Shown piece by piece: positions 1,496 through 21,131 of a stretch of DNA of 64,000 bases. Source of the stretch: Candidatus Portnoybacteria bacterium. Lineage in GTDB: Bacteria > Patescibacteriota > Minisyncoccia > Portnoybacterales > GWB1-42-6. A program made the position numbers and the translations under genes. The stretch lies in NCBI GenBank assembly GCA_028688325.1, contig JAQTYI010000002.1, positions 76,379 through 140,378 of the forward strand. Reading direction: 5' to 3'. The notes beneath the pieces were generated by a model. The model searched no databases, was not told the DNA's origin, and saw only the letters and a list, made by a program, of their open reading frames with translations. The number at the start of each line of letters is the position of its first letter. Positions within the stretch are counted from its first letter, which is position 1.

Positions 1496-3589
1496 TTATT
1501 CCAATATCGCCTTAATCCTGCGCACACCGGCAGATGATGCTTCTTCCTTTACGATCTTAAATTTACCCAGCGCTCCAGTGCGCTCGGCGTGCGGCCCGCC
1601 GCAAATTTCGCGGCTGAATGCGCCTTCGACAAGCTCAGGCGATAAATCTTTATCCCCTGAGCGACCCCGCATTTGCGGGGGAGTCGAAGGGTTTTCTATT
1701 GTATAAACTTTCACCTTGTTTCCGTATTTGGCGTCAAATACGCCTGTTGCCCCGGACTCTTTCGCTTTCTCCAAATCCATCTCTTCGCAAACCACCGGCA
1801 AATCATTTTTTATCTGCTCATTAACGATATCTTCGACTTGCTTGATCTGCTCGGGCGTCATTTTCTGGCCGTAGGAAAAATCAAAGCGCAAGCGCTCGGG
1901 TGTGATGTTGGAGCCCTTTTGCGACACTTGCTCGCCCAAGACCTTTTTCAACGCCGCCAGCATCAAATGCGCGGCCGTGTGGTATTTCACCGTCGCCTCG
2001 CTGGCATCCGCCAGCCCGCCCTTGAACATCCCGGCCGAAGCGGCGCGGGAAAGTTCCTGGTGTTTTTTAAATTCTTCCTCAAACTCTTTCTTGAACTCTT
2101 TTTCATTTACAAGTAATGCCCTACCTGCTAATTCTTCTTGTATCATTTCCAGAGGAAACCCGTATGTCTGATATATAAAAAACGCTTTTTTTGCATCTAC
2201 TCTATTAAATTCTTTTATTTCTGCGCCCAAAGATATCTTCTGAGTACTACCAATAAGAAGCATCTTATTTAATTCTTTCAATCCCTGCTCCAGCGTTTCT
2301 TTGAATTTATTTTCTTCCTTGACTAACTGATGGATGATGAATTCCTTATTCTTTTCCAATTCCGGATAAGTATCTTTATATATTCTGACAACTTCGCCTG
2401 CGAGTTCAAAAGAAAAATTTTCTTTGATGCCCAGAGAAAAAGCGTTGCGCACCGCGCGGCGAATGAGCCGGCGCAAAACATAACCCGCGCCGACATTGGA
2501 AGGCGTGATCCTTTTTTCATCGCCCAGAATGAAAGCGGCGGCCTTGATATGGTCGGCGATAATGCGCATCGCGCGCGTTATATCTTCTCTCTCCTTTTGT
2601 AAATCTAACCCCCCTGCGCCCCCCTTTAAAAGGGGGGGAGATACAGGTTTTTCTCCCCCCTTATGCAAAAGGGGGGTTGGGGGGTTAATTTCCCCTCTTC
2701 TTAAAGGAGAGGGCTGGGACGAGATTATACCGTATTTTTTCCCCGACAATTCCTCTATCTTTCCTATCAGCGGCCAAAAGAGTTCGTTATCAAAAGCGTC
2801 TCTTTTACCATTTAACACGGATGCCGTCCGCTCCAATCCCATCCCTGTGTCCACATTCTTTTGCTTTAATTTTTCAAACTTGCCCGCCGTGATTTTATTG
2901 AATTCCATAAAAACATCATTCCAAACTTCCATCACTCGAAAATCATTAATTTCTTCGTCAAAAGTTTTTTGTAAAATGCCAAGTTGCGACTCGGTATCAT
3001 AAAACATTTCCGTGGCCGGACCGCACGGCCCGGTTTGCCCGGCCGGCCCCCACCAGTTATCTTTAGTAGGCATTGGAAAAATTCGGTAATTTTTATTACC
3101 GGCAATTTTTGTATTGTATGAGCAAACTTCTGCCTCAATCCCAGCAGAAGCAAAAACTTTTTTCCAAACTTCAATTGCTTCCGTATCCTGTTCGCTATTT
3201 TCATCACCCATAAAAACCGTAACATACAGCCGCTGCGGGTCCATTCCCAGCCATTCCTTGCTAGTCAAAAATTCCCAGCTCCACTCAATCGCCTCTTTCT
3301 TAAAATAATCGCCCAGCGACCAGTTACCAAGCATCTCAAAAAAGGTCAGATGACGGTTATCACCAACATCATCAATATCAGAAGTGCGAATACATTTTTG
3401 TGCATCACAAAGCCGCGAACTGGCCGGATGCTTTTCGCCCATAAGATAGGGCACCAGCGGATGCATGCCCGCGGTAGTAAAAAGCACGGTCGGGTCGTTT
3501 TCGGGAATCAAAGAAGCCGAGGGGATTGTCGTATGGCCCTTTGTCTTGAAAAATTCCAGATATTTTTGCCTCAATTCTTTTGCGGTCAT
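1496..3589 (-). CDS. alaS: Alanine--tRNA ligase (short form, 697 aa), carrying in-frame repeat insertions.
   Basis: N-terminal class II AlaRS catalytic motifs (FFKTKGHTTIPSASLIP, FTTAGMHPLVPY, RTSDIDDVGDNRHLTFFEMLGNWSLGDYFK). C-terminal editing-domain motifs (HTAAHLMLAAL, CGGPH). Confidence 0.9.
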   Translation of the reverse strand: MTAKELRQKYLEFFKTKGHTTIPSASLIPENDPTVLFTTAGMHPLVPYLMGEKHPASSRLCDAQKCIRTSDIDDVGDNRHLTFFEMLGNWSLGDYFKKEAIEWSWEFLTSKEWLGMDPQRLYVTVFMGDENSEQDTEAIEVWKKVFASAGIEAEVCSYNTKIAGNKNYRIFPMPTKDNWWGPAGQTGPCGPATEMFYDTESQLGILQKTFDEEINDFRVMEVWNDVFMEFNKITAGKFEKLKQKNVDTGMGLERTASVLNGKRDAFDNELFWPLIGKIEELSGKKYGIISSQPSPLRRGEINPPTPLLHKGGEKPVSPPLLKGGAGGLDLQKEREDITRAMRIIADHIKAAAFILGDEKRITPSNVGAGYVLRRLIRRAVRNAFSLGIKENFSFELAGEVVRIYKDTYPELEKNKEFIIHQLVKEENKFKETLEQGLKELNKMLLIGSTQKISLGAEIKEFNRVDAKKAFFIYQTYGFPLEMIQEELAGRALLVNEKEFKKEFEEEFKKHQELSRAASAGMFKGGLADASEATVKYHTAAHLMLAALKKVLGEQVSQKGSNITPERLRFDFSYGQKMTPEQIKQVEDIVNEQIKNDLPVVCEEMDLEKAKESGATGVFDAKYGNKVKVYTIENPSTPPQMRGRSGDKDLSPELVEGAFSREICGGPHAERTGALGKFKIVKEEASSAGVRRIKAILE
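1653..1693. repeat. GC hairpin insertion in the alaS editing domain (ccctgagcga-ccccgcatttgcggggg-agtcgaaggg), related to the CTGAGCG/CGAAGG family.
   Basis: Palindrome ccccgcatttgcgggg flanked by ctgagcga / tcgaagg arms; encodes an extra STPPQMRGRSGDKD-type segment just before the CGGPH motif. Confidence 0.55.
2607..2718. repeat. Three tandem GC-stem hairpin units inserted in frame in alaS, encoding SPLRRGEINPPTPLLHKGGEKPVSPPLLKGGAGG.
   Basis: cccccctttaaaaggggggg, ccccccttatgcaaaagggggg and ccctcttcttaaaggagaggg units, each a C-run / T(A/T)A-loop / G-run palindrome. Confidence 0.7.
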
Positions 3590-3661
3590 TCTCGTTTAAT
3601 CTTAACAATTCAAATTCGTTTAGTAAATACGGCGATTGTCGTTTTAAAATAAATAAAGCTC

Positions 3662-8668: not shown

Positions 8669-8696
8669 GTTCTCTTTTGCCCGGGCAAAAGAGAAC
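8669..8696. repeat. 28-bp perfect palindrome gttctcttttgcccgggcaaaagagaac in the same intergenic region.
   Basis: Perfect dyad symmetry. Confidence 0.7.
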
Positions 8697-8737: not shown

Positions 8738-10015
8738 CTATTTCATGGGTAAGTCCACGGGCGGGCCGCCTTTTTTAACTTCCAGATACGGCGTCATCGG
8801 GCTGCGCACGCCAATAGTCGGGAAGTGAAACAGCGTGGCCAGCTCTTCAATATTCATAATATATCCATTTTCCCAAAACGAACGGGCGCGCATCATTCGC
8901 ATCAAAACCCGCTGCTTATAGGCCTTGCGGCCCTTGGCAAAAAGATAATTGGCCTTGGTGATCGTTGCGGGATCAGGCCTTAAACTATTCATATTCAAAT
9001 TGGCGGTCTGGGCGATAATACCCATGGTCGCCGAAACATTGGCCATGGTAAAAATATCCGACCGGCCGATGTAAACAAAATTAACTTTTGATTCAAAGCC
9101 CTTTTTGCTGGCTTTGAGTTCAATTCCTTGTATAACATCTTTATCTCCCTGGGAAAGATGCATCGCTAAACTGTAGGGCTCGTTTTTGTTGTCTTTTTTG
9201 TCGCGCGGCGGAGCGACATCGCCGAAGATGATAGCGTAAGCGGCATCATAAAAGGCCTCATACCAAGTGCGCGCCTCCATGGCGAAAATGCCTTCTTTCT
9301 TTTCGGGCGGTTTTTTGCCCAGCAATTTGTCGGCTATGGCTTTGGCTTTCTTCTGCCAGACATCGTCAATCGGCCGAAAAAGAATTTGCAGCCAGACCTG
9401 TTCTCCCTGCTTTAATTTGCCGAAAACTTCCATTAAGCCGGCCATCGGGTCGAAAAACGGCTGGTCGGTCTTGGCCACATCTATAAGTTCAACATAAGTT
9501 CTCAAGGGATAGGCGTCTTCATTGGCCATCTTCAAGCGCGCTCCCCATAAATTCCAATTTTTGTTCGGCACATCCGTCGGCACAGACCAGACATAATCCG
9601 GAACTTCCCTGATTTCCGCCTGGGGATATTGCGAATAAATCTGCGCCTCGACCAGATCACGAAATTTGCTTAGCGTGCGCAAATAAAAATGCGCTTCGCC
9701 GTTGATGCCAACCAGTTCAAAGCTGAAATAATCCTGCGTTTTACCTAAAATATATTTCTCGTATTTATATCCCACTGTGCCGATAACGCCCCACAGGCCG
9801 GCGAAAATCTGTTCCATATTTTTGGGCGAGCTTTCCACTTCTTTGGGCGGTTTAACCTCAAGCATGATCCAATCCAGTTGGCGCCACTGCCAGCGCTGAA
9901 TATAATACATCCATGATTTAAAAAAAATAACTGCCAAAAAAATCGGCAGCCATATCCAAGCAACCCTAAAGAAAAAATCCAGAAAGTTTAAATAGACGGT
10001 AAAGATCTCTTGCAT
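8738..10015 (-). CDS. Membrane protein (N-terminal TM segment plus a large soluble domain), co-oriented upstream partner of the VirD4-like ATPase.
   Basis: Hydrophobic N-terminus FFFRVAWIWLPIFLAVIFF; same strand and adjacent to the ATPase gene; no recognisable catalytic motif. Confidence 0.45.
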   Translation of the reverse strand: MQEIFTVYLNFLDFFFRVAWIWLPIFLAVIFFKSWMYYIQRWQWRQLDWIMLEVKPPKEVESSPKNMEQIFAGLWGVIGTVGYKYEKYILGKTQDYFSFELVGINGEAHFYLRTLSKFRDLVEAQIYSQYPQAEIREVPDYVWSVPTDVPNKNWNLWGARLKMANEDAYPLRTYVELIDVAKTDQPFFDPMAGLMEVFGKLKQGEQVWLQILFRPIDDVWQKKAKAIADKLLGKKPPEKKEGIFAMEARTWYEAFYDAAYAIIFGDVAPPRDKKDNKNEPYSLAMHLSQGDKDVIQGIELKASKKGFESKVNFVYIGRSDIFTMANVSATMGIIAQTANLNMNSLRPDPATITKANYLFAKGRKAYKQRVLMRMMRARSFWENGYIMNIEELATLFHFPTIGVRSPMTPYLEVKKGGPPVDLPMK

Positions 10016-16429: not shown

Positions 16430-19108
16430 TTATTTTCCACAACACTTCTTATATTTCTTGCCGCTCCCACAAGGGCAAGGATCATTGCGCCCCACTTCCC
16501 CGTCTTTTTTCTCGGCCACAACCTGGCCAGAAATGATATTTTTAACTTCTCGCCTTTCAGCCGCCTGCTCGCTCATTATGCCGACTTTATAAATAGAGCC
16601 GACAAAGCTGCTCTGGATTGCGCCCAGCAGGCGCTGAAAAAGGCGCATGCCTTCGTTTTTATATTCCACCAGCGGGTCTTTCTGGCCGTAGGCGCGCAGT
16701 TTTACAGAATGGCGCAGATGCTCCATTTCGTCCAAGTGCTCCATCCAGAACATATCGATGGTGCGCAAATAGAACATTTTCTCGATTTCGCGCATACTGG
16801 CCTCACTGACCTCTTTTTCTTTTGTCTCGTAGGCCTGCCTGGCCGAATCGGACAAATATTTTTCCAGCTCTTCCTTGTTTTTAATTTCGGCCATCTTCTG
16901 CTCAGCATCGCTGGGCAGATTAAAGATCGCTTTGACACCCTCCTGAATTTCCGCCAGATTCCAATCCTCGCGATAATCGCCTGGCGCGTGAAAATCGATG
17001 ATCTTGGTTATTTCTTTATCGATTATTCCCAAAACCTCATCGCGCAAGCTATCGGATTCCAAAACTTCCAGCCGCTTGCGATAGATGGTTTCGCGCTGCT
17101 TATTCATCACATCGTCATATTCCAGAACATGCTTGCGAGTATCGAAATTAAAGCCCTCTATCTTGGCCTGCGCGTTCTCGATGGCGCGGGAAATCATTTT
17201 ATTCTCGATGGGCTGGTCTTCCGGAATCTGCATAACTTCCATCAGCCGTTTAATTTTATCGGGTGCAAAAATGCGCATCAGGTCGTCTTCCAGCGAAACG
17301 AAAAATTGCGAAGAGCCGGCGTCCCCCTGGCGGCCGGAGCGGCCGCGCAGCTGATCATCGATGCGCCGCGCTTCGTGGCGCTCAGTGCCGATGATATGCA
17401 AACCGCCGAGCGCGACAACTTCGTCGTGTTCTTTTTGCCAATTGTTTAAATCTCCCTCTTCGAGTCCTGTCGGCCTAACCCCTCCTAAAGGAGGGGAACC
17501 CGCATCGCCGCTCCCTCCCTTTAGGGAGGGCTGGGGAGGATTTTCATCAGGTCTTCCACCAAGAATAATATCCACGCCGCGGCCCGCCATATTGGTCGCC
17601 ACCGTCACCCCGCCCTTGCGGCCGGCCTTGGCGATTATCTGCGCTTCCCGCTCGTGGTTTTTGGCATTCAACAATTCATGCGGAATGCCTTCTTTTTTCA
17701 AAAATTGGCTTAATAGTTCATTTTTTTCTATGGAAACCGTTCCCACCAGCACCGGCTGGCCCGCGTCGTGCCGGTTTTTTATCTCCCGCGCCACGGCGAC
17801 AAATTTCCCGTGTTCGGTGCGATAAATGCTGTCGGGCATATCCACGCGCACCATCGGCTGATTGGTCGGCACGATAACGACATCCAATTTATAAACTTTA
17901 GAAAATTCCTCGGCGGATGTTAAAGCCGTGCCGGTCATGCCGGACAGTTTTTTATACAAGCGGAAATAATTCTGGAAAGTTATCGTCGCCAAGGTGCGCG
18001 ATTCTTTCTGCACGGGCACCCCTTCTTTGGCTTCCAAGGCCTGATGCAAACCTTCGCTGTAGCGGCGGCCCTGCATCAAGCGGCCCGTAAATTCATCAAC
18101 GATTATTATTTCGCCGTCTTTCACGACATAATCTTTGTCGCGCTTGAAAAGCGCTTGCGCGCGCAGCGCCTGCTCCAAGTGGTGCGCGTATTTTATCCCG
18201 CCTTCGGTATAGATATTTCCCATGCCCAAAATCTTTTCCACCTTATCTATGCCCTCTTCCGTCAAAGTGGCGGCGCGCATTTTTTCATCGAGATTGTAAT
18301 CAACATTTTCAACAAGACGCGGAGCGATTTTAGAAAAGGTCTCGTATAGTTTTCCCGAATCCTCGTCCGGCGCGGAAATTATCAAAGGCGTGCGCGCTTC
18401 GTCTATCAATATCGAGTCCACTTCGTCCACTATGGCAAAGTTATGTTTGCGCTGAGACATATCTTTCAATTCAGCCACCATATTGTCGCGCAGATAATCG
18501 AAACCGAATTCGTTGTTGGTACCGTAAGTGATGTCGGCGGCATAGGCCTCGGGCCGGCGGACTTCTTTTAGATTCGCCATCTCCACCGTAATCTCGTTCT
18601 TGTCCAACACCACGGGTTCATATATATAGGATCTTTCGTGTTGCAGGCAACCCACGGAAAGCCCCAACAAATTAAAAACCGCGCCCATCCAGTTGGCATC
18701 GCGCTTGGACAGATAATCGTTCACCGTAACAACATGCGCGCCTTTTCCTTCAAGCGCGTTAAGATATATCGCCAAAGTGGCGGTTAAGGTTTTTCCTTCG
18801 CCCGTTTTCATTTCGGCAATCTTGCCTTCATGCAAAACCATTCCGCCGATAAGTTGCGCGTCAAAATGCCGCTGGCCCAAAGCTCTTTTGGCCGCCTCGC
18901 GCGTCAGCGCGAAGGCCTCCGGCAAAATTTCATCCAGCGTTTGACCTTTTTGCAAACGCTCCCTGAGCTCCTGTGTTTTGTTTTTCAATTCCTCAACCGA
19001 AAAACGCCCGAACTCCGGTTCAAGCTTGTTTATCTGTTCAACGATGGTTTCGTATTTGGCAATGCTCCCCCCGCCCGCGTTGCCGAAAAAATTAGTTAAA
19101 AACGACAT
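16430..19108 (-). CDS. secA: Preprotein translocase ATPase SecA, with an in-frame palindromic-repeat insertion.
   Basis: Full SecA architecture (DEAD motor motifs, PPXD, HWD/HSD) and C-terminal zinc finger CPCGSGKKYKKCCG. Insert NPPQPSLKGGSGDAGSPPLGGVRPTGLEEGD encoded by 17478-17538. Confidence 0.95.
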   Translation of the reverse strand: MSFLTNFFGNAGGGSIAKYETIVEQINKLEPEFGRFSVEELKNKTQELRERLQKGQTLDEILPEAFALTREAAKRALGQRHFDAQLIGGMVLHEGKIAEMKTGEGKTLTATLAIYLNALEGKGAHVVTVNDYLSKRDANWMGAVFNLLGLSVGCLQHERSYIYEPVVLDKNEITVEMANLKEVRRPEAYAADITYGTNNEFGFDYLRDNMVAELKDMSQRKHNFAIVDEVDSILIDEARTPLIISAPDEDSGKLYETFSKIAPRLVENVDYNLDEKMRAATLTEEGIDKVEKILGMGNIYTEGGIKYAHHLEQALRAQALFKRDKDYVVKDGEIIIVDEFTGRLMQGRRYSEGLHQALEAKEGVPVQKESRTLATITFQNYFRLYKKLSGMTGTALTSAEEFSKVYKLDVVIVPTNQPMVRVDMPDSIYRTEHGKFVAVAREIKNRHDAGQPVLVGTVSIEKNELLSQFLKKEGIPHELLNAKNHEREAQIIAKAGRKGGVTVATNMAGRGVDIILGGRPDENPPQPSLKGGSGDAGSPPLGGVRPTGLEEGDLNNWQKEHDEVVALGGLHIIGTERHEARRIDDQLRGRSGRQGDAGSSQFFVSLEDDLMRIFAPDKIKRLMEVMQIPEDQPIENKMISRAIENAQAKIEGFNFDTRKHVLEYDDVMNKQRETIYRKRLEVLESDSLRDEVLGIIDKEITKIIDFHAPGDYREDWNLAEIQEGVKAIFNLPSDAEQKMAEIKNKEELEKYLSDSARQAYETKEKEVSEASMREIEKMFYLRTIDMFWMEHLDEMEHLRHSVKLRAYGQKDPLVEYKNEGMRLFQRLLGAIQSSFVGSIYKVGIMSEQAAERREVKNIISGQVVAEKKDGEVGRNDPCPCGSGKKYKKCCGK
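17478..17538. repeat. Two GC-stem hairpin units inserted in frame in secA, encoding PPQPSLKGGSGDAGSPPLGG.
   Basis: cccctcctaaaggagggg and ccctccctttagggaggg; same architecture and same PxLKGG peptide as the alaS units. Confidence 0.7.
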
Positions 19109-19148
19109 ATGTTAGTCCTAATCCTCGCTATTTATTTTTGTCACATTA

Positions 19149-19177
19149 ATAATACCCATTAAATGTTATATTATCAA
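19149..19177 (-). promoter_or_regulatory. Sigma70-like promoter for secA (TTGATA-17-TATTAT on the minus strand).
   Basis: Reverse complement reads ttgata atataacatttaatggg tattat; the -35 sits 1 bp from palindrome copy 1. Confidence 0.55.
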
Positions 19178-19178
19178 T

Positions 19179-19216
19179 CTTGGACACTTTTACGCTATAG
19201 CGTAAAAGTGTCCAAG
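19179..19216. repeat. 38-bp perfect palindrome, copy 1 (cttggacacttttacgctatagcgtaaaagtgtccaag), abutting the secA -35.
   Basis: Perfect dyad symmetry. Core cacttttacgctatagcgtaaaagtg is shared with copies 2 and 3. Confidence 0.8.
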
Positions 19217-19258
19217 AGACAGCCGACAACAACTTCTCTATCCCTCCAGTATGGACTC

Positions 19259-19852
19259 CTACACATTAAAATATTTTTTTAATCTTTTGTCGATATCTTT
19301 AATGTCCGACTCCAGATATAGAATATCATCGCCGACTCCAAAAAAATCCGAAATAAAATCAATCTCTTTTTTGCAGTCAAATGGATAAATAAAAACACTT
19401 TTCTGAAGCTGCAGCATCCTCAAATTTTTGAATTTAGAGCGCAAAGCATCTCTGGCTTGTTTTTTATCTTCTGGTATGTCAAAAATTATTACCCGCCATT
19501 TGCCGTCCCATCGCTTATCGTTTTTTAATTCAATCCTATCGACATCATATTTTAATAATTCTTCCCGGCCTTTTTTCGTTAAAATCATCTCTGCCCGCCC
19601 ACCCCTCATTTTTCTTTTTATTAATTTTCTTTTTTCTAACCGGCCGACATATCGCCTGGCGCTTGACCGGTTGAAATTTTTCCAAGAAACATAATTTTCG
19701 TCTTTTAATAAAAAACTAAAAGCTGACACCGCGTTAGGCGCCGCTATCGCCGCCAACAAAACCCCGCCCATCCCCAAAAACTTCAGAATGGCCTTAGCTG
19801 AAAAAGCGTCCGAATCTTTATTTAATTCCTTTATTTTATCAAATATTCTCAT
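19259..19852 (-). CDS. Small regulator-like protein: hydrophobic N-terminus, winged HTH, and a C-terminal Cas2-like/PaaX_C-like ferredoxin fold.
   Basis: RRYVGRLEKRKLIKRK ... ILTKKGREELL (wHTH-like). WRVIIFDIPEDKKQARDALRSKFKNLRMLQLQKSVFIYPFD ... ILYLE closely matches the Cas2/PaaX C-terminal signature. Confidence 0.5.
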   Translation of the reverse strand: MRIFDKIKELNKDSDAFSAKAILKFLGMGGVLLAAIAAPNAVSAFSFLLKDENYVSWKNFNRSSARRYVGRLEKRKLIKRKMRGGRAEMILTKKGREELLKYDVDRIELKNDKRWDGKWRVIIFDIPEDKKQARDALRSKFKNLRMLQLQKSVFIYPFDCKKEIDFISDFFGVGDDILYLESDIKDIDKRLKKYFNV

Positions 19853-19950
19853 TTTAGTAATTCAAGTCCTTTTCAAATTGCCATCCTTATGATTCTTATT
19901 ATATTATGTATGCCATATATTGGCGCCGCGTATTTTATTATTTTAATTTT

Positions 19951-19998
19951 ATCATCCTGGACACTTTTACGCTATAGCGTAAAAGTGTCCAGGATGAT
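19951..19998. repeat. 48-bp perfect palindrome, copy 2 (atcatcctggacacttttacgctatagcgtaaaagtgtccaggatgat).
   Basis: Perfect dyad. Located between the divergent PaaX/Cas2-like gene and the 146-aa gene. Confidence 0.8.
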
Positions 19999-20056
19999 TG
20001 CCTATTCTATTATATATCTTGTACCTGTTGTACATCGACCATTCAACCTCGGCCTA

Positions 20057-20085
20057 TTGACAAGTTGATAAAAAGATTCTATACT
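20057..20085 (+). promoter_or_regulatory. Consensus sigma70 promoter (TTGACA-17-TATACT) for the 146-aa gene.
   Basis: ttgaca agttgataaaaagattc tatact. Confidence 0.7.
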
Positions 20086-20150
20086 GTACTGCGTTGACTT
20101 ATCCGGCTCTTTTTATCTGAAAATATATACCAAACCAACAAGGAGGAATT

Positions 20151-20591
20151 ATGGATGCGAAAGAAAAACAGTTCGGAGAGATTAACACCGTGCTTGCCAA
20201 AGAGCTTGAACATCACGCCAGGCCAGGCAGAAGCATGATGGGGCCGCGCTTCAAGATGACATTCTATTTTTCCTTTGCTCACCTGTCCGACGGGCGCCGT
20301 ATCAATATGGTTTCCAAGGTAACGGGAATCCCGGTTGCGGAGCTGCGCGAATACCGCGAATTCCGCAAAACGGAAATCCCGCGATTGCTCAAAAAGATAT
20401 TCTTGGAAAATCCGGATTTGGCTCCAAGCAACAAAGAAATCCAAAATGGCAGCGCCTGGGGCGATATGCAACCAGAGTTTTCCAAAAAGATGAGCGTTTG
20501 GGCAAAAAAGACCAGTATCAATTTCCACATCATCCGCGCCGTCTGGGACGAAACACTGCCCAGCAAACGCCAAAAGATCTTTGGAAATTAA
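20151..20591 (+). CDS. Hypothetical 146-aa protein with a possible internal HTH (INMVSKVTGIPVAELREYREF), expressed from its own strong promoter and terminator.
   Basis: SD AAGGAGG 4-5 nt before ATG; sigma70 promoter at 20057-20085; intrinsic terminator at 20611-20645; no recognisable family. Confidence 0.5.
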   Translation: MDAKEKQFGEINTVLAKELEHHARPGRSMMGPRFKMTFYFSFAHLSDGRRINMVSKVTGIPVAELREYREFRKTEIPRLLKKIFLENPDLAPSNKEIQNGSAWGDMQPEFSKKMSVWAKKTSINFHIIRAVWDETLPSKRQKIFGN

Positions 20592-20610
20592 AACGATATC
20601 CGAAACAGCA

Positions 20611-20645
20611 CAAGGACTGCAAATGCAGTCCTTGTTTTTTTATTT
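20611..20645 (+). terminator. Rho-independent terminator after the 146-aa gene.
   Basis: caaggactgca aat tgcagtccttg ttttttttatttatttt. Confidence 0.8.
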
Positions 20646-20850
20646 ATTTTACACAATTTTCTTATAATCTTTTTGAATACAGCAAAAATTTTGTCGGGTC
20701 GTCTTTGGCAAAGATTTCCGGAATGTCTTCATTTCATCAATTGTTTTTATTTTCATAATTTTGTGCCCATCTAACCAAACCGCGACTTTCCAATTTTCAC
20801 ATCCGCTATTTGCACCATATACCATAGGAGGCCCTATTTTCATTTTATCA

Positions 20851-20890
20851 TCTTGAGCACTTTTACGCTATAGCGTAAAAGTGCTCAAGA
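20851..20890. repeat. 40-bp perfect palindrome, copy 3 (tcttgagcacttttacgctatagcgtaaaagtgctcaaga), with compensatory arm changes (ggacac>gagcac, gtgtcc>gtgctc).
   Basis: Perfect dyad; same core; the left flank ttttatcatc is shared with copy 2. Confidence 0.8.
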
Positions 20891-21074
20891 ACTACTGTTA
20901 CATACCGATACCAATACTGATCGAACTTATTCAATCCGGCAAATTCCCCACCTCTCTCTGCTGAAAAAATTAGATAAAAAAGGACATTTTTATTTTTATC
21001 GTCCTGAACTTGATTCAGGATCCAGAAGATTAAATTTATACCAAATTATACAAAAAAATAGCCGAAATTGCAAA

Positions 21075-21108
21075 TAAAAAACCACCGATACTAAACATAA
21101 AATCGGTG
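21075..21108 (-). terminator. Intrinsic terminator downstream of the GNAT-like gene.
   Basis: Minus strand reads caccgat-loop-atcggtg followed by gttttttatttg. Confidence 0.6.
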
Positions 21109-21131
21109 ACTAAATACGATCCTATAAATAA

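Follow-up and report, generated by a model that had tools for sequence, protein, structure and literature searches.

A short PaaX-like gene bracketed by self-complementary palindromes in Patescibacteria and the putative operator role of these dyads

The DNA analysed here (the window) is a 64,000-nt stretch of a Candidatus Portnoybacteria bacterium genome (GenBank assembly GCA_028688325.1, contig JAQTYI010000002.1, positions 76,379 to 140,378). Beside secA it holds a gene for a short PaaX-like protein with a winged helix and a Cas2-like domain, and long perfect palindromes with a common core stand on both sides of this gene, followed by a gene for a 146-aa orphan open reading frame (ORFan) and a third palindrome copy (Table 1). 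The layout had been proposed in a reading of the letters made without database searches (the sequence-only reading), and its arrangement of secA, the PaaX_M/Cas2-like gene and the 146-aa gene was borne out. Judging from the genome comparisons described below, the module is found throughout the Candidate Phyla Radiation (CPR, Patescibacteria): a short PaaX-like gene with self-complementary dyads on either side that diversify along with it.

The 26-bp core of the palindromes, CACTTTTACGCTATAGCGTAAAAGTG, matched exactly at three sites in the window (19185, 19962 and 20858), where shuffled sequences are expected to hold none, and a search with its inner 16-mer at up to 3 mismatches found no fourth copy elsewhere in the 64 kb. 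The three perfect dyads with a common core were thus confirmed, as were the proposed sizes of copies 2 and 3, whereas copy 1, given earlier as 38 bp at 19179-19216, was found to be 40 bp. These three are the longest perfect palindromes of the window; the runner-up has 28 bp, and Markov-random windows reach a maximum of 14-24 bp. Folding of the single-stranded DNA gave one hairpin per copy, at -20 to -25 kcal/mol (z-scores -10 to -13). The copies differ at one T/C position (copy 2) and at a GA/AG pair (copy 3), and all these differences are mirrored on the opposite arm; the paired substitution earlier seen in copy 3 (GGACAC/GTGTCC to GAGCAC/GTGCTC) is real and compensated. Copies 2 and 3 also have a left flank of 16-18 nt in common, and their repeat unit is asymmetric (56 nt at 88% identity, direct-repeat family D1); the 16-nt left flank of copy 3 duplicates the flank and -10 box of copy 2. 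The arrangement is not CRISPR-like (clustered regularly interspaced short palindromic repeats), in agreement with the sequence-only reading: the copies are spaced by 777 and 896 bp with genes between them, and CRISPR repeats of 25-40 bp are separated by spacers of 25-70 bp. An origin, terminus or dif-like site was considered and rejected, as GC skew is negative throughout the window without a switch and the copies flank a gene. The runner-up palindrome, GTTCTCTTTTGCCCGGGCAAAAGAGAAC (8669-8696), has a different core and lies 42 bp past the stop of a minus-strand gene (8738-10015), where it may be a terminator or another dyad site.

Table 1. Features at the locus and tRNA genes near the module in other genomes
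Feature	Sequence	Position	Strand	Remarks
secA	window	16430-19108	-	gene layout as first read
Predicted secA promoter, TTGATA-N17-TATTAT	window	19149-19177	-	consensus scan
Palindrome copy 1	window	19178-19217	.	40 bp, perfect; 41 nt past the PaaX-like gene stop; adjoins secA -35
PaaX-like gene, 197 aa	window	19259-19852	-	Pfam PF20803, 5e-20
Candidate PaaX-like gene promoter, extended -10-like box TGATAAAAT	window	19946-19954	-	gene-proximal edge of copy 2
Palindrome copy 2	window	19951-19998	.	48 bp, perfect; precedes the PaaX-like gene and the promoter of the 146-aa gene
146-aa gene promoter, TTGACA-N17-TATACT, near-consensus	window	20057-20085	+	consensus scan
146-aa ORFan gene	window	20151-20591	+	strong Shine-Dalgarno; own canonical terminator 20610-20645
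Palindrome copy 3 with left flank	window	20835-20890	.	perfect part of 40 bp at 20851-20890
Displaced secA 5'-end fragment, pseudo start codon	window	20959-20987	-	repeat family D2; far side of the module
tRNA gene near module	L003	1821-1894		
tRNA gene near module	L025	6714-6785		
tRNA gene near module	L002	1177-1259		
tRNA gene near module	L055	3708-3783		
tRNA gene near module	L063	2742-2816		
tRNA gene near module	L081	3638-3822		
tRNA gene near module	L103	606-694		

We scanned one genome per species (596 Gb, GTDB) for the exact 20-mer TTTTACGCTATAGCGTAAAA, for which about 0.5 loci are expected by chance, and found it at 25 loci, 24 of them CPR-like. The remaining match, in Algoriphagus, is a bare 20-mer lacking a palindromic extension and acts as a negative control. 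All 31 CPR copies are perfect palindromes of 28-50 bp, which extend beyond the exact core by at least 4 bp per arm (usually 8-12 bp), and their outer arms vary from genome to genome yet stay complementary. The co-variation of the arms claimed for the window therefore holds there and over these 31 copies from other genomes; neither arms that fail to co-vary nor hundreds of copies unlinked to the gene, the two outcomes named beforehand as damaging to the proposal, were seen. A PaaX-like homologue (30-81% identity) adjoins the element at 9 of the 25 exact-core loci, with copies on both sides of the gene in five of the nine (L002, L003, L022, L024 and L025), and a tolerant search revealed a degenerate second copy in L001, L005 and L015. 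Among the nine metagenome-assembled genomes (MAGs) whose gene-flanking copies carry the exact core, lone exact-core copies number at most one per MAG. Three loci (L003, L021 and L024; records CAYIBX01 and CAYHQC01) are labelled 'uncultured Gammaproteobacteria'; this label or the binning is probably wrong, because the CPR module is present and the sequences are 85-89% identical to the Patescibacteria MAG L025.

To avoid circularity, we sampled 80 metagenome loci through the PaaX-like protein alone, calling an inverted repeat at a score of at least 11 and taking windows 1-1.5 kb away as controls. The results showed an inverted repeat in 89 of 160 gene flanks versus 6 of 93 control windows, and the upstream and downstream repeats have a word of at least 10 nt in common in 36 of the 66 loci with both flanks. 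Many of the sampled genes are flanked by long perfect palindromes of wholly different sequence. The upstream repeat lies at a median of about 24 nt before the ATG and the downstream repeat about 24 nt past the stop, irrespective of whether a tandem (16 loci) or a convergent gene (8 loci) follows. The dyad centres follow GC-N4-GC, as in GCTATAGC (n=15), GCGATCGC (n=12), ACGATCGT (n=8), ACTATAGT (n=8) and GCTATCGC (n=5). With the adjacency at the exact-core loci and a cognate repeat at most of the 80 protein-first loci, the proposed tie between the element and the adjacent gene for a winged helix-turn-helix (wHTH)/Cas2-like protein is upheld. A correlation of the recognition helix with the dyad class was also considered; dyad classes follow protein clades, a pattern that is not separable from shared ancestry and was not used as evidence.

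Several loci of this sample carry variants of the element. In L027, four ACGCTATAGCGT cores of 12-14 bp surround an intact gene (2780-2900 and 3560-3600), three of them in tandem upstream and with arms that are not self-complementary, and this locus may be a natural 'core-only' variant. L073 has a lone 54-bp perfect copy of its own dyad class (1534-1587), which stands 1.4 kb away on the upstream side of the module and is longer than the gene-flanking copy. The dyad ends of L042 (2504-2535) and L053 (718-749) read TCTCCT…AGGAGA, so that one arm doubles as the Shine-Dalgarno sequence of the PaaX-like gene.

We counted arm covariation over 28 distinct copies at the eight pairs just outside the searched core. 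These outer pairs were about 97% Watson-Crick with all four pair types represented (at one position AU 10, CG 10, UA 7 and GC 1), and the covariation score was 0.485; slid controls scored 0.10-0.16 and shuffles 0.155, with 0 of 500 reaching the observed value. Compensated change of this kind, transversions included, is also seen between orthologous copies in other lineages. Four related loci (L042, L053, L083 and L096) have stably inherited a T.T mismatch, which shows that symmetrisation of the arms is not automatic. Self-complementarity itself is maintained, which could be through selection for a hairpin or cruciform or through template-switch correction of quasi-palindromes, an established mechanism.

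The 197-aa protein carries the PaaX_M domain (PF20803, 'central Cas2-like domain') at residues 113-186 (E 5.1e-20), besides weak Cas2 and winged-helix matches and weak hidden Markov model matches to AspA, TubR, MarR and PadR; PaaX_M was precomputed on all 120 homologues among the matches listed. Its AlphaFold2 (AF2) model has a predicted local distance difference test (pLDDT) score of 75 overall and above 87 in the Cas2-like half, and shows a helix-helix-helix-wing unit at residues 42-91. In Foldseek, the best PDB match was E. coli PaaX (8A39, E 2.7e-5, 185 aligned columns), followed by two other PaaX-like structures and then by many Cas2 proteins. TIGR02277 gave 27.5 bits versus a cut-off of 264, and no match to the PaaX_C effector domain was found; the chain ends 11 residues past the Cas2-like domain, so the effector domain of PaaX is missing. 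We class the 197-aa protein in the PaaX fold family, as a truncated and re-purposed member. An Asp aligned with the Cas2 catalytic Asp and six other residues are invariant in the family, which comprises 1268 clusters at 50% identity and E<=1e-30 (6172 at E<=1e-3). An N-terminal hydrophobic stretch with a conserved GGxLxAAxxAPN was considered as a membrane anchor; AF2 confidence is low there, and the stretch could instead be part of the winged-helix bundle.

The PaaX-like gene is single-copy wherever seen. Its neighbours are housekeeping genes such as secA, truA, topA and serS; among 81 loci there was no recurrent partner gene, and no paa catabolic genes were found among the module neighbours. 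An association with phages, plasmids or defence was considered and rejected, because PHROGs and the phage comparison gave no match, PADLOC gave weak Cas2 matches only, plasmids held no homologue of this family but only distant canonical PaaX, and viral contigs gave a single weak match (L106), which lacks the repeat.

The three palindromes are most likely the PaaX-like protein's own binding site, because the element brackets the PaaX-like gene across the CPR and its arms stay complementary as the sequence changes. The PaaX binding site in E. coli is a 39-bp dyad, TGATTC-N27-GAATCA, and through steric hindrance PaaX represses the promoter of its own gene (PMC9493321). The module dyads, at 36-58 bp, match this operator in size and dyad form, from which binding is predicted. 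The extended -10-like box at copy 2 has counterparts (TGGTA[AT]A[AC]T) at the equivalent edge in the relatives L005, L015 and L022, and such boxes occur at the gene-proximal edge in 20 of 42 upstream repeats, compared with 22-34% at other edges and a background of 12.5%. The left flank common to the window copies therefore appears to be a promoter piece, and each copy looks like an operator-promoter unit reading leftwards. At copy 1, the secA -35 element TTGATA (19177-19172) directly abuts the palindrome, as had been noted earlier, and the position of this copy next to secA is kept in L005, L015 and L022, with the secA promoter beside it in the same register (relatives' sequences, by eye). The copy number is low, as in a small regulon, with no copy in the other 62 kb of the window.

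We give about an even chance to the reading that the palindromes are cognate operators of an autoregulated short PaaX-like protein, their arms being kept symmetric by a hairpin- or cruciform-dependent process, with control of secA in this clade. From the observed sequences, gene-element linkage, covariation and positions we infer binding, repression, looping and cruciform formation along the following lines. A PaaX-like dimer would bind across the dyad of about 40 bp, as E. coli PaaX does its own, with the Cas2-like domain acting as the dimerisation domain of a truncated PaaX-type protein that has no effector domain. Copy 2 overlaps the gene's own extended -10, where binding would mean autorepression; copy 1, within the first non-coding DNA past the stop, may serve as a second operator (auxiliary or looping) and, lying at the secA -35, may couple secA to the PaaX-like protein. 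Copy 3 would be a duplicate of copy 2 and its promoter flank, made when the ORFan segment entered the locus. Because the arms drift and yet stay self-complementary, their symmetry cannot come from base-specific protein contacts, and a hairpin or cruciform process is indicated, whether selection for extrusion or the correction of quasi-palindromes by template switching.

Several observations weigh against the operator reading. About 30% of the protein-first loci have no repeat at the threshold used; loci scored in this way often retain degenerate versions, such as the imperfect arms beside the intact gene of L026. At 8 of 24 loci a convergent gene follows, and there too the downstream copy tracks the stop of the PaaX-like gene, so that it is not generally a promoter operator. 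Of the 14 lone copies, 9 lie 9-75 bp past a stop codon, 4 are in convergent intergenic regions and none is in a divergent region, a placement that is more terminator-like, or more like repetitive extragenic palindromes (REPs), than operator-like. The arms differ among copies of one genome, each compensated, which base-specific readout fails to explain; in one clade with near-identical recognition helices the dyad centre varies freely, and a sub-terminal CAGTTAT-like word is conserved instead. The invariant Asp and the six other invariant residues hint at a function beyond dimerisation. Finally, the close relative L107 (about 96% identity to the window over the aligned region, an estimate) shows a compensated T>C/A>G change within the core of copy 1, and its copy 2 is replaced at five positions on both arms, with flanks almost unchanged.

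Comparison with relatives also bears on how the locus was assembled. The sequence-only reading described a two-gene island and raised the question of whether the block is an insertion; a single insertion was not supported, since the palindrome-gene-palindrome unit by secA is common to relatives at 80% protein identity and the clade-specific structural variant comprises only the 146-aa ORFan, a remnant reading frame (ORF64) and copy 3. The core palindrome-gene-palindrome module is ancestral in the clade. The ORFan has one homologue only among 5.8 billion proteins, no match in Pfam, PHROG, NCBIfam or PADLOC, and no counterpart in L005, L015 and L022; it is present in L107, where copy 3 is not found, and is a clade-specific passenger between copies 2 and 3. 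Its strong expression, asserted earlier, would follow from consensus signals alone. ORF64 (64 aa, 20649-20843, minus strand), which begins 7 nt from copy 3, probably does not represent a gene. In its C-terminal part there is a weak match to the 3' end of a second GNAT paralogue found in L015, and L107 retains only this part, as the end of an intact GNAT gene; by this weak match, ORF64 may be the remnant of a GNAT paralogue.

Beyond the palindrome-gene-palindrome block lies a decayed secA start of about 10-14 codons including the ATG (20946-20987, compare 19068-19108). Local alignments place a displaced secA 5' fragment past the module in L005, L015 and L022 as well, and that of L022 spans 72 bp at 93% identity to its own secA. 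The fragment looks like an att-type or target duplication, or the product of repeated gene conversion. No flanking direct repeats comparable to it were found at 24 other loci, and a general target-site duplication at the module was rejected; the secA duplication is clade-specific. The SecA protein of the window also has a Gly/Pro-rich insertion, PDENPPQPSLKGGSGDAGSPPLGGVRPTGLEEGD, in its motor domain (17560-17680, residues ~480-520).

Among the alternatives, the one that survives best is that the module resembles paired REPs and their associated tyrosine transposase (REPIN/RAYT) or is otherwise recombinogenic: a wHTH-guided Cas2-fold nuclease would act on the hairpin or cruciform and copy, move or exchange the element and neighbouring DNA, its substrates lying on either side of its gene as REPs do beside a RAYT gene. 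We consider this unlikely, although several observations speak for it. The element stands close to the gene on both sides, irrespective of the neighbouring genes, and lone copies, which sit at gene 3' ends and never in divergent regions, have identical arms on other contigs of the same MAG (L003/L021 40/40, L022/L013 36/36). Hairpin-type covariation that lacks wobble pairs is what DNA predicts, and the invariant Asp aligned with the Cas2 catalytic Asp fits a nuclease. Rearrangements point the same way: the homology of L003 and L025 ends exactly at the outer edge of the downstream palindrome, where 1.2 kb with two genes is inserted; in L002 the palindrome together with 70 nt forms a direct repeat of 111 bp; the window has the ORFan insertion with a duplicated palindrome, and the duplicated secA 5' fragment flanks the module. 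The flanks of L034/L038 and L040 are 86-92% identical and the cassette just 65-70%, as in whole-module replacement. In addition, six lineages have tRNA genes at most 150 bp away from the module (Table 1), far above a uniform spread over the 3-kb flanks, and in L002 a tRNA-Leu stands between two palindrome copies.

However, the copy number is very low, with just three clustered copies in 64 kb, and the gene is single-copy and syntenic with secA in relatives at 72-80% identity. The protein has no HUH, transposase or integrase domain (Pfam and NCBIfam gave only PaaX_M and weak Cas2), the phage and plasmid comparisons found no homologues beyond the weak viral-contig match, flanking direct repeats were seen at 0 of 24 other loci and so are no general feature, and the rearrangements could be side effects of palindrome instability. 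Regarding the exchange itself, L034 (2878-3639) and L040 (1500-3431) represent one chromosomal site in closely related genomes, at which the whole cassette and its repeats are swapped for an allele with a different dyad. The replacement boundaries in L034 lie 20-40 bp outside the repeats and the variable region of L040 reaches about 530-680 bp further on each side, and the difference is an allelic or cassette-exchange pattern.

A specific form of the recombinogenic idea, to which we likewise assign a small probability, is a new hairpin-DNA system: guided by its winged helix, the Cas2-fold protein would recognise the palindromes beside its gene in their cruciform or hairpin form and perhaps cut or resolve them. 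In function such a system would parallel REPIN-RAYT or hairpin-end elements, and the arm turnover, palindrome-edge breakpoints, cassette replacement and ORFan capture would be products of the protein's activity. To our knowledge, the Cas2 fold is known in mobile or adaptive contexts so far only as the Cas2 subunit of the CRISPR integrase.

A further alternative places the function in RNA: the palindromes would be long hairpins at transcript ends (terminators, insulators, stabilisers or RNase III sites) and possible targets for binding or cleavage by the Cas2-like (RRM-like) protein. The downstream and lone copies lie 9-75 nt past stops, the N4 of the GC-N4-GC centre is at times not self-complementary (TATC, TGGA), like a tetraloop on a clamp, some palindromes contain a Shine-Dalgarno sequence (e.g. 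L042 and L053), and some Cas2 proteins are RNases. On the other hand, only two wobble cells occur in the eight variable pairs, and among 1577 pairs of 85 distinct stems there are 53 mismatches, of which the G.U-compatible G.T pairs (16, 1.0%) are about as rare as A.C (10, 0.6%). Asymmetric 4-nt centres (TATC or GATA) are mixed in orientation to the gene (16 versus 7, by eye), and copy 2 lies upstream of both predicted promoters. The terminator scan did not call the palindromes as intrinsic terminators, they have no U-tract or T-run, and the flanking genes have their own canonical terminators (20610-20645 and ~21080-21112); Rfam gave no family match, only chance hits to mir-287 (24-26 bits versus a gathering score of 80). 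The near-absence of wobble pairs, the mixed loop orientation and the position of copy 2 favour a DNA-level constraint acting on both strands. These results leave the RNA element very unlikely, and structured RNA as the sole role, one of the candidates first put forward, is disfavoured.

It is equally improbable that the long arms are functionless, with only a 12-20 bp core at work and the extensions a neutral 'perfecting' by template switching in replication: the four bare cores of L027 and the degenerate arms of L026 beside intact genes, the range of arm length (14-25 nt) and the multi-site symmetric replacement between the ~96% identical genomes fit this idea, but arm extension is universal in the 31 exact-core CPR copies, the T.T mismatch is stable in its four loci, and one clade conserves the arms more than the centre.

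The operator reading would matter for a group with tiny genomes and very few recognisable regulators. With at least 1268 clusters at 50% identity, the PaaX-like family is one of the large lineage-typical families of Patescibacteria, and it is annotated merely as 'hypothetical' or 'PaaX-like'. Each member would have a readable cis-partner that gives its target sequence, so that regulons become predictable directly from genomes, and the link to secA expression in one clade is a first lead. Hundreds of co-diversified protein-dyad pairs would form a natural series for the evolution of specificity, and the compensated arms, free of wobble, offer an unusually clear example from nature of hairpin potential in DNA, not RNA, under selection or a mutational mechanism. 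Should the Cas2-fold domain be catalytic, the module would be a new class of hairpin-directed DNA element. We found no prior description of a palindrome-bracketed PaaX-like module in the literature searched, and the element appears to be undescribed so far.

We compared the module with four known systems. Integron attC cassettes offer a parallel in that repeats able to form hairpins closely delimit ORFs, an ORFan among them, and that two copies enclose an additional cassette-like segment. However, attC sites are imperfect, with extrahelical bases, and single-strand specific, whereas the module has perfect, symmetric repeats and its constant 'cassette' always belongs to one gene family. No IntI/attI platform was found among the conserved neighbours, and no specific integrase search was made across the whole window. 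The attC-like role suggested by the sequence-only reading does not hold, given perfect palindromes and no recurrent neighbour gene.

The likeness to REP/REPIN-RAYT is a single-copy, vertically inherited gene with cognate hairpin-forming palindromes on both sides, a few further copies in intergenic DNA at gene 3' ends, and lineage-specific sequences that change together with the protein. The differences are that RAYT is an IS200-like HUH Y1 transposase and the PaaX-like protein is not, that the module palindromes are perfect, and that REPs number tens to hundreds per genome, compared with 2-4 here (64-kb window, exact-core MAG copies). A REP/RAYT role, also suggested earlier, thus finds a parallel only in the flanking of a gene by cognate palindromes, as there is no HUH Y1 transposase and the 64-kb window and exact-core MAGs showed no tens to hundreds of dispersed copies.

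Lrp/AsnC regulators join a wHTH to a beta-alpha-beta-beta-alpha-beta (ferredoxin-fold) domain, autoregulate at palindromes and can be global or architectural. The PaaX-like protein follows the same domain logic, a DNA-binding winged helix fused to an oligomerisation domain, although that domain is RAM/ACT there and Cas2-like here, and the sites here are much longer.

PaaX of E. coli and Pseudomonas differs from the module in several respects: it has about 305 aa with a C-terminal effector, compared with 197 aa lacking it here; paa catabolic genes are not near the module; the PaaX target consists of two hexamers and a free spacer, whereas the dyads here are fully perfect palindromes of 36-58 bp; a second copy lies immediately past the stop, and arms co-vary between copies; and the short family is restricted to Patescibacteria and hugely diversified there. 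In both, however, an N-terminal winged helix precedes a Cas2-like PaaX_M domain, and the long dyad target of PaaX, of about 39 bp and with a site at its own promoter, has a putative counterpart here. Of the three roles offered by the sequence-only reading, an operator is the best fit, in view of the PaaX operator geometry, the extended -10 at copy 2 and the conserved secA promoter at copy 1.

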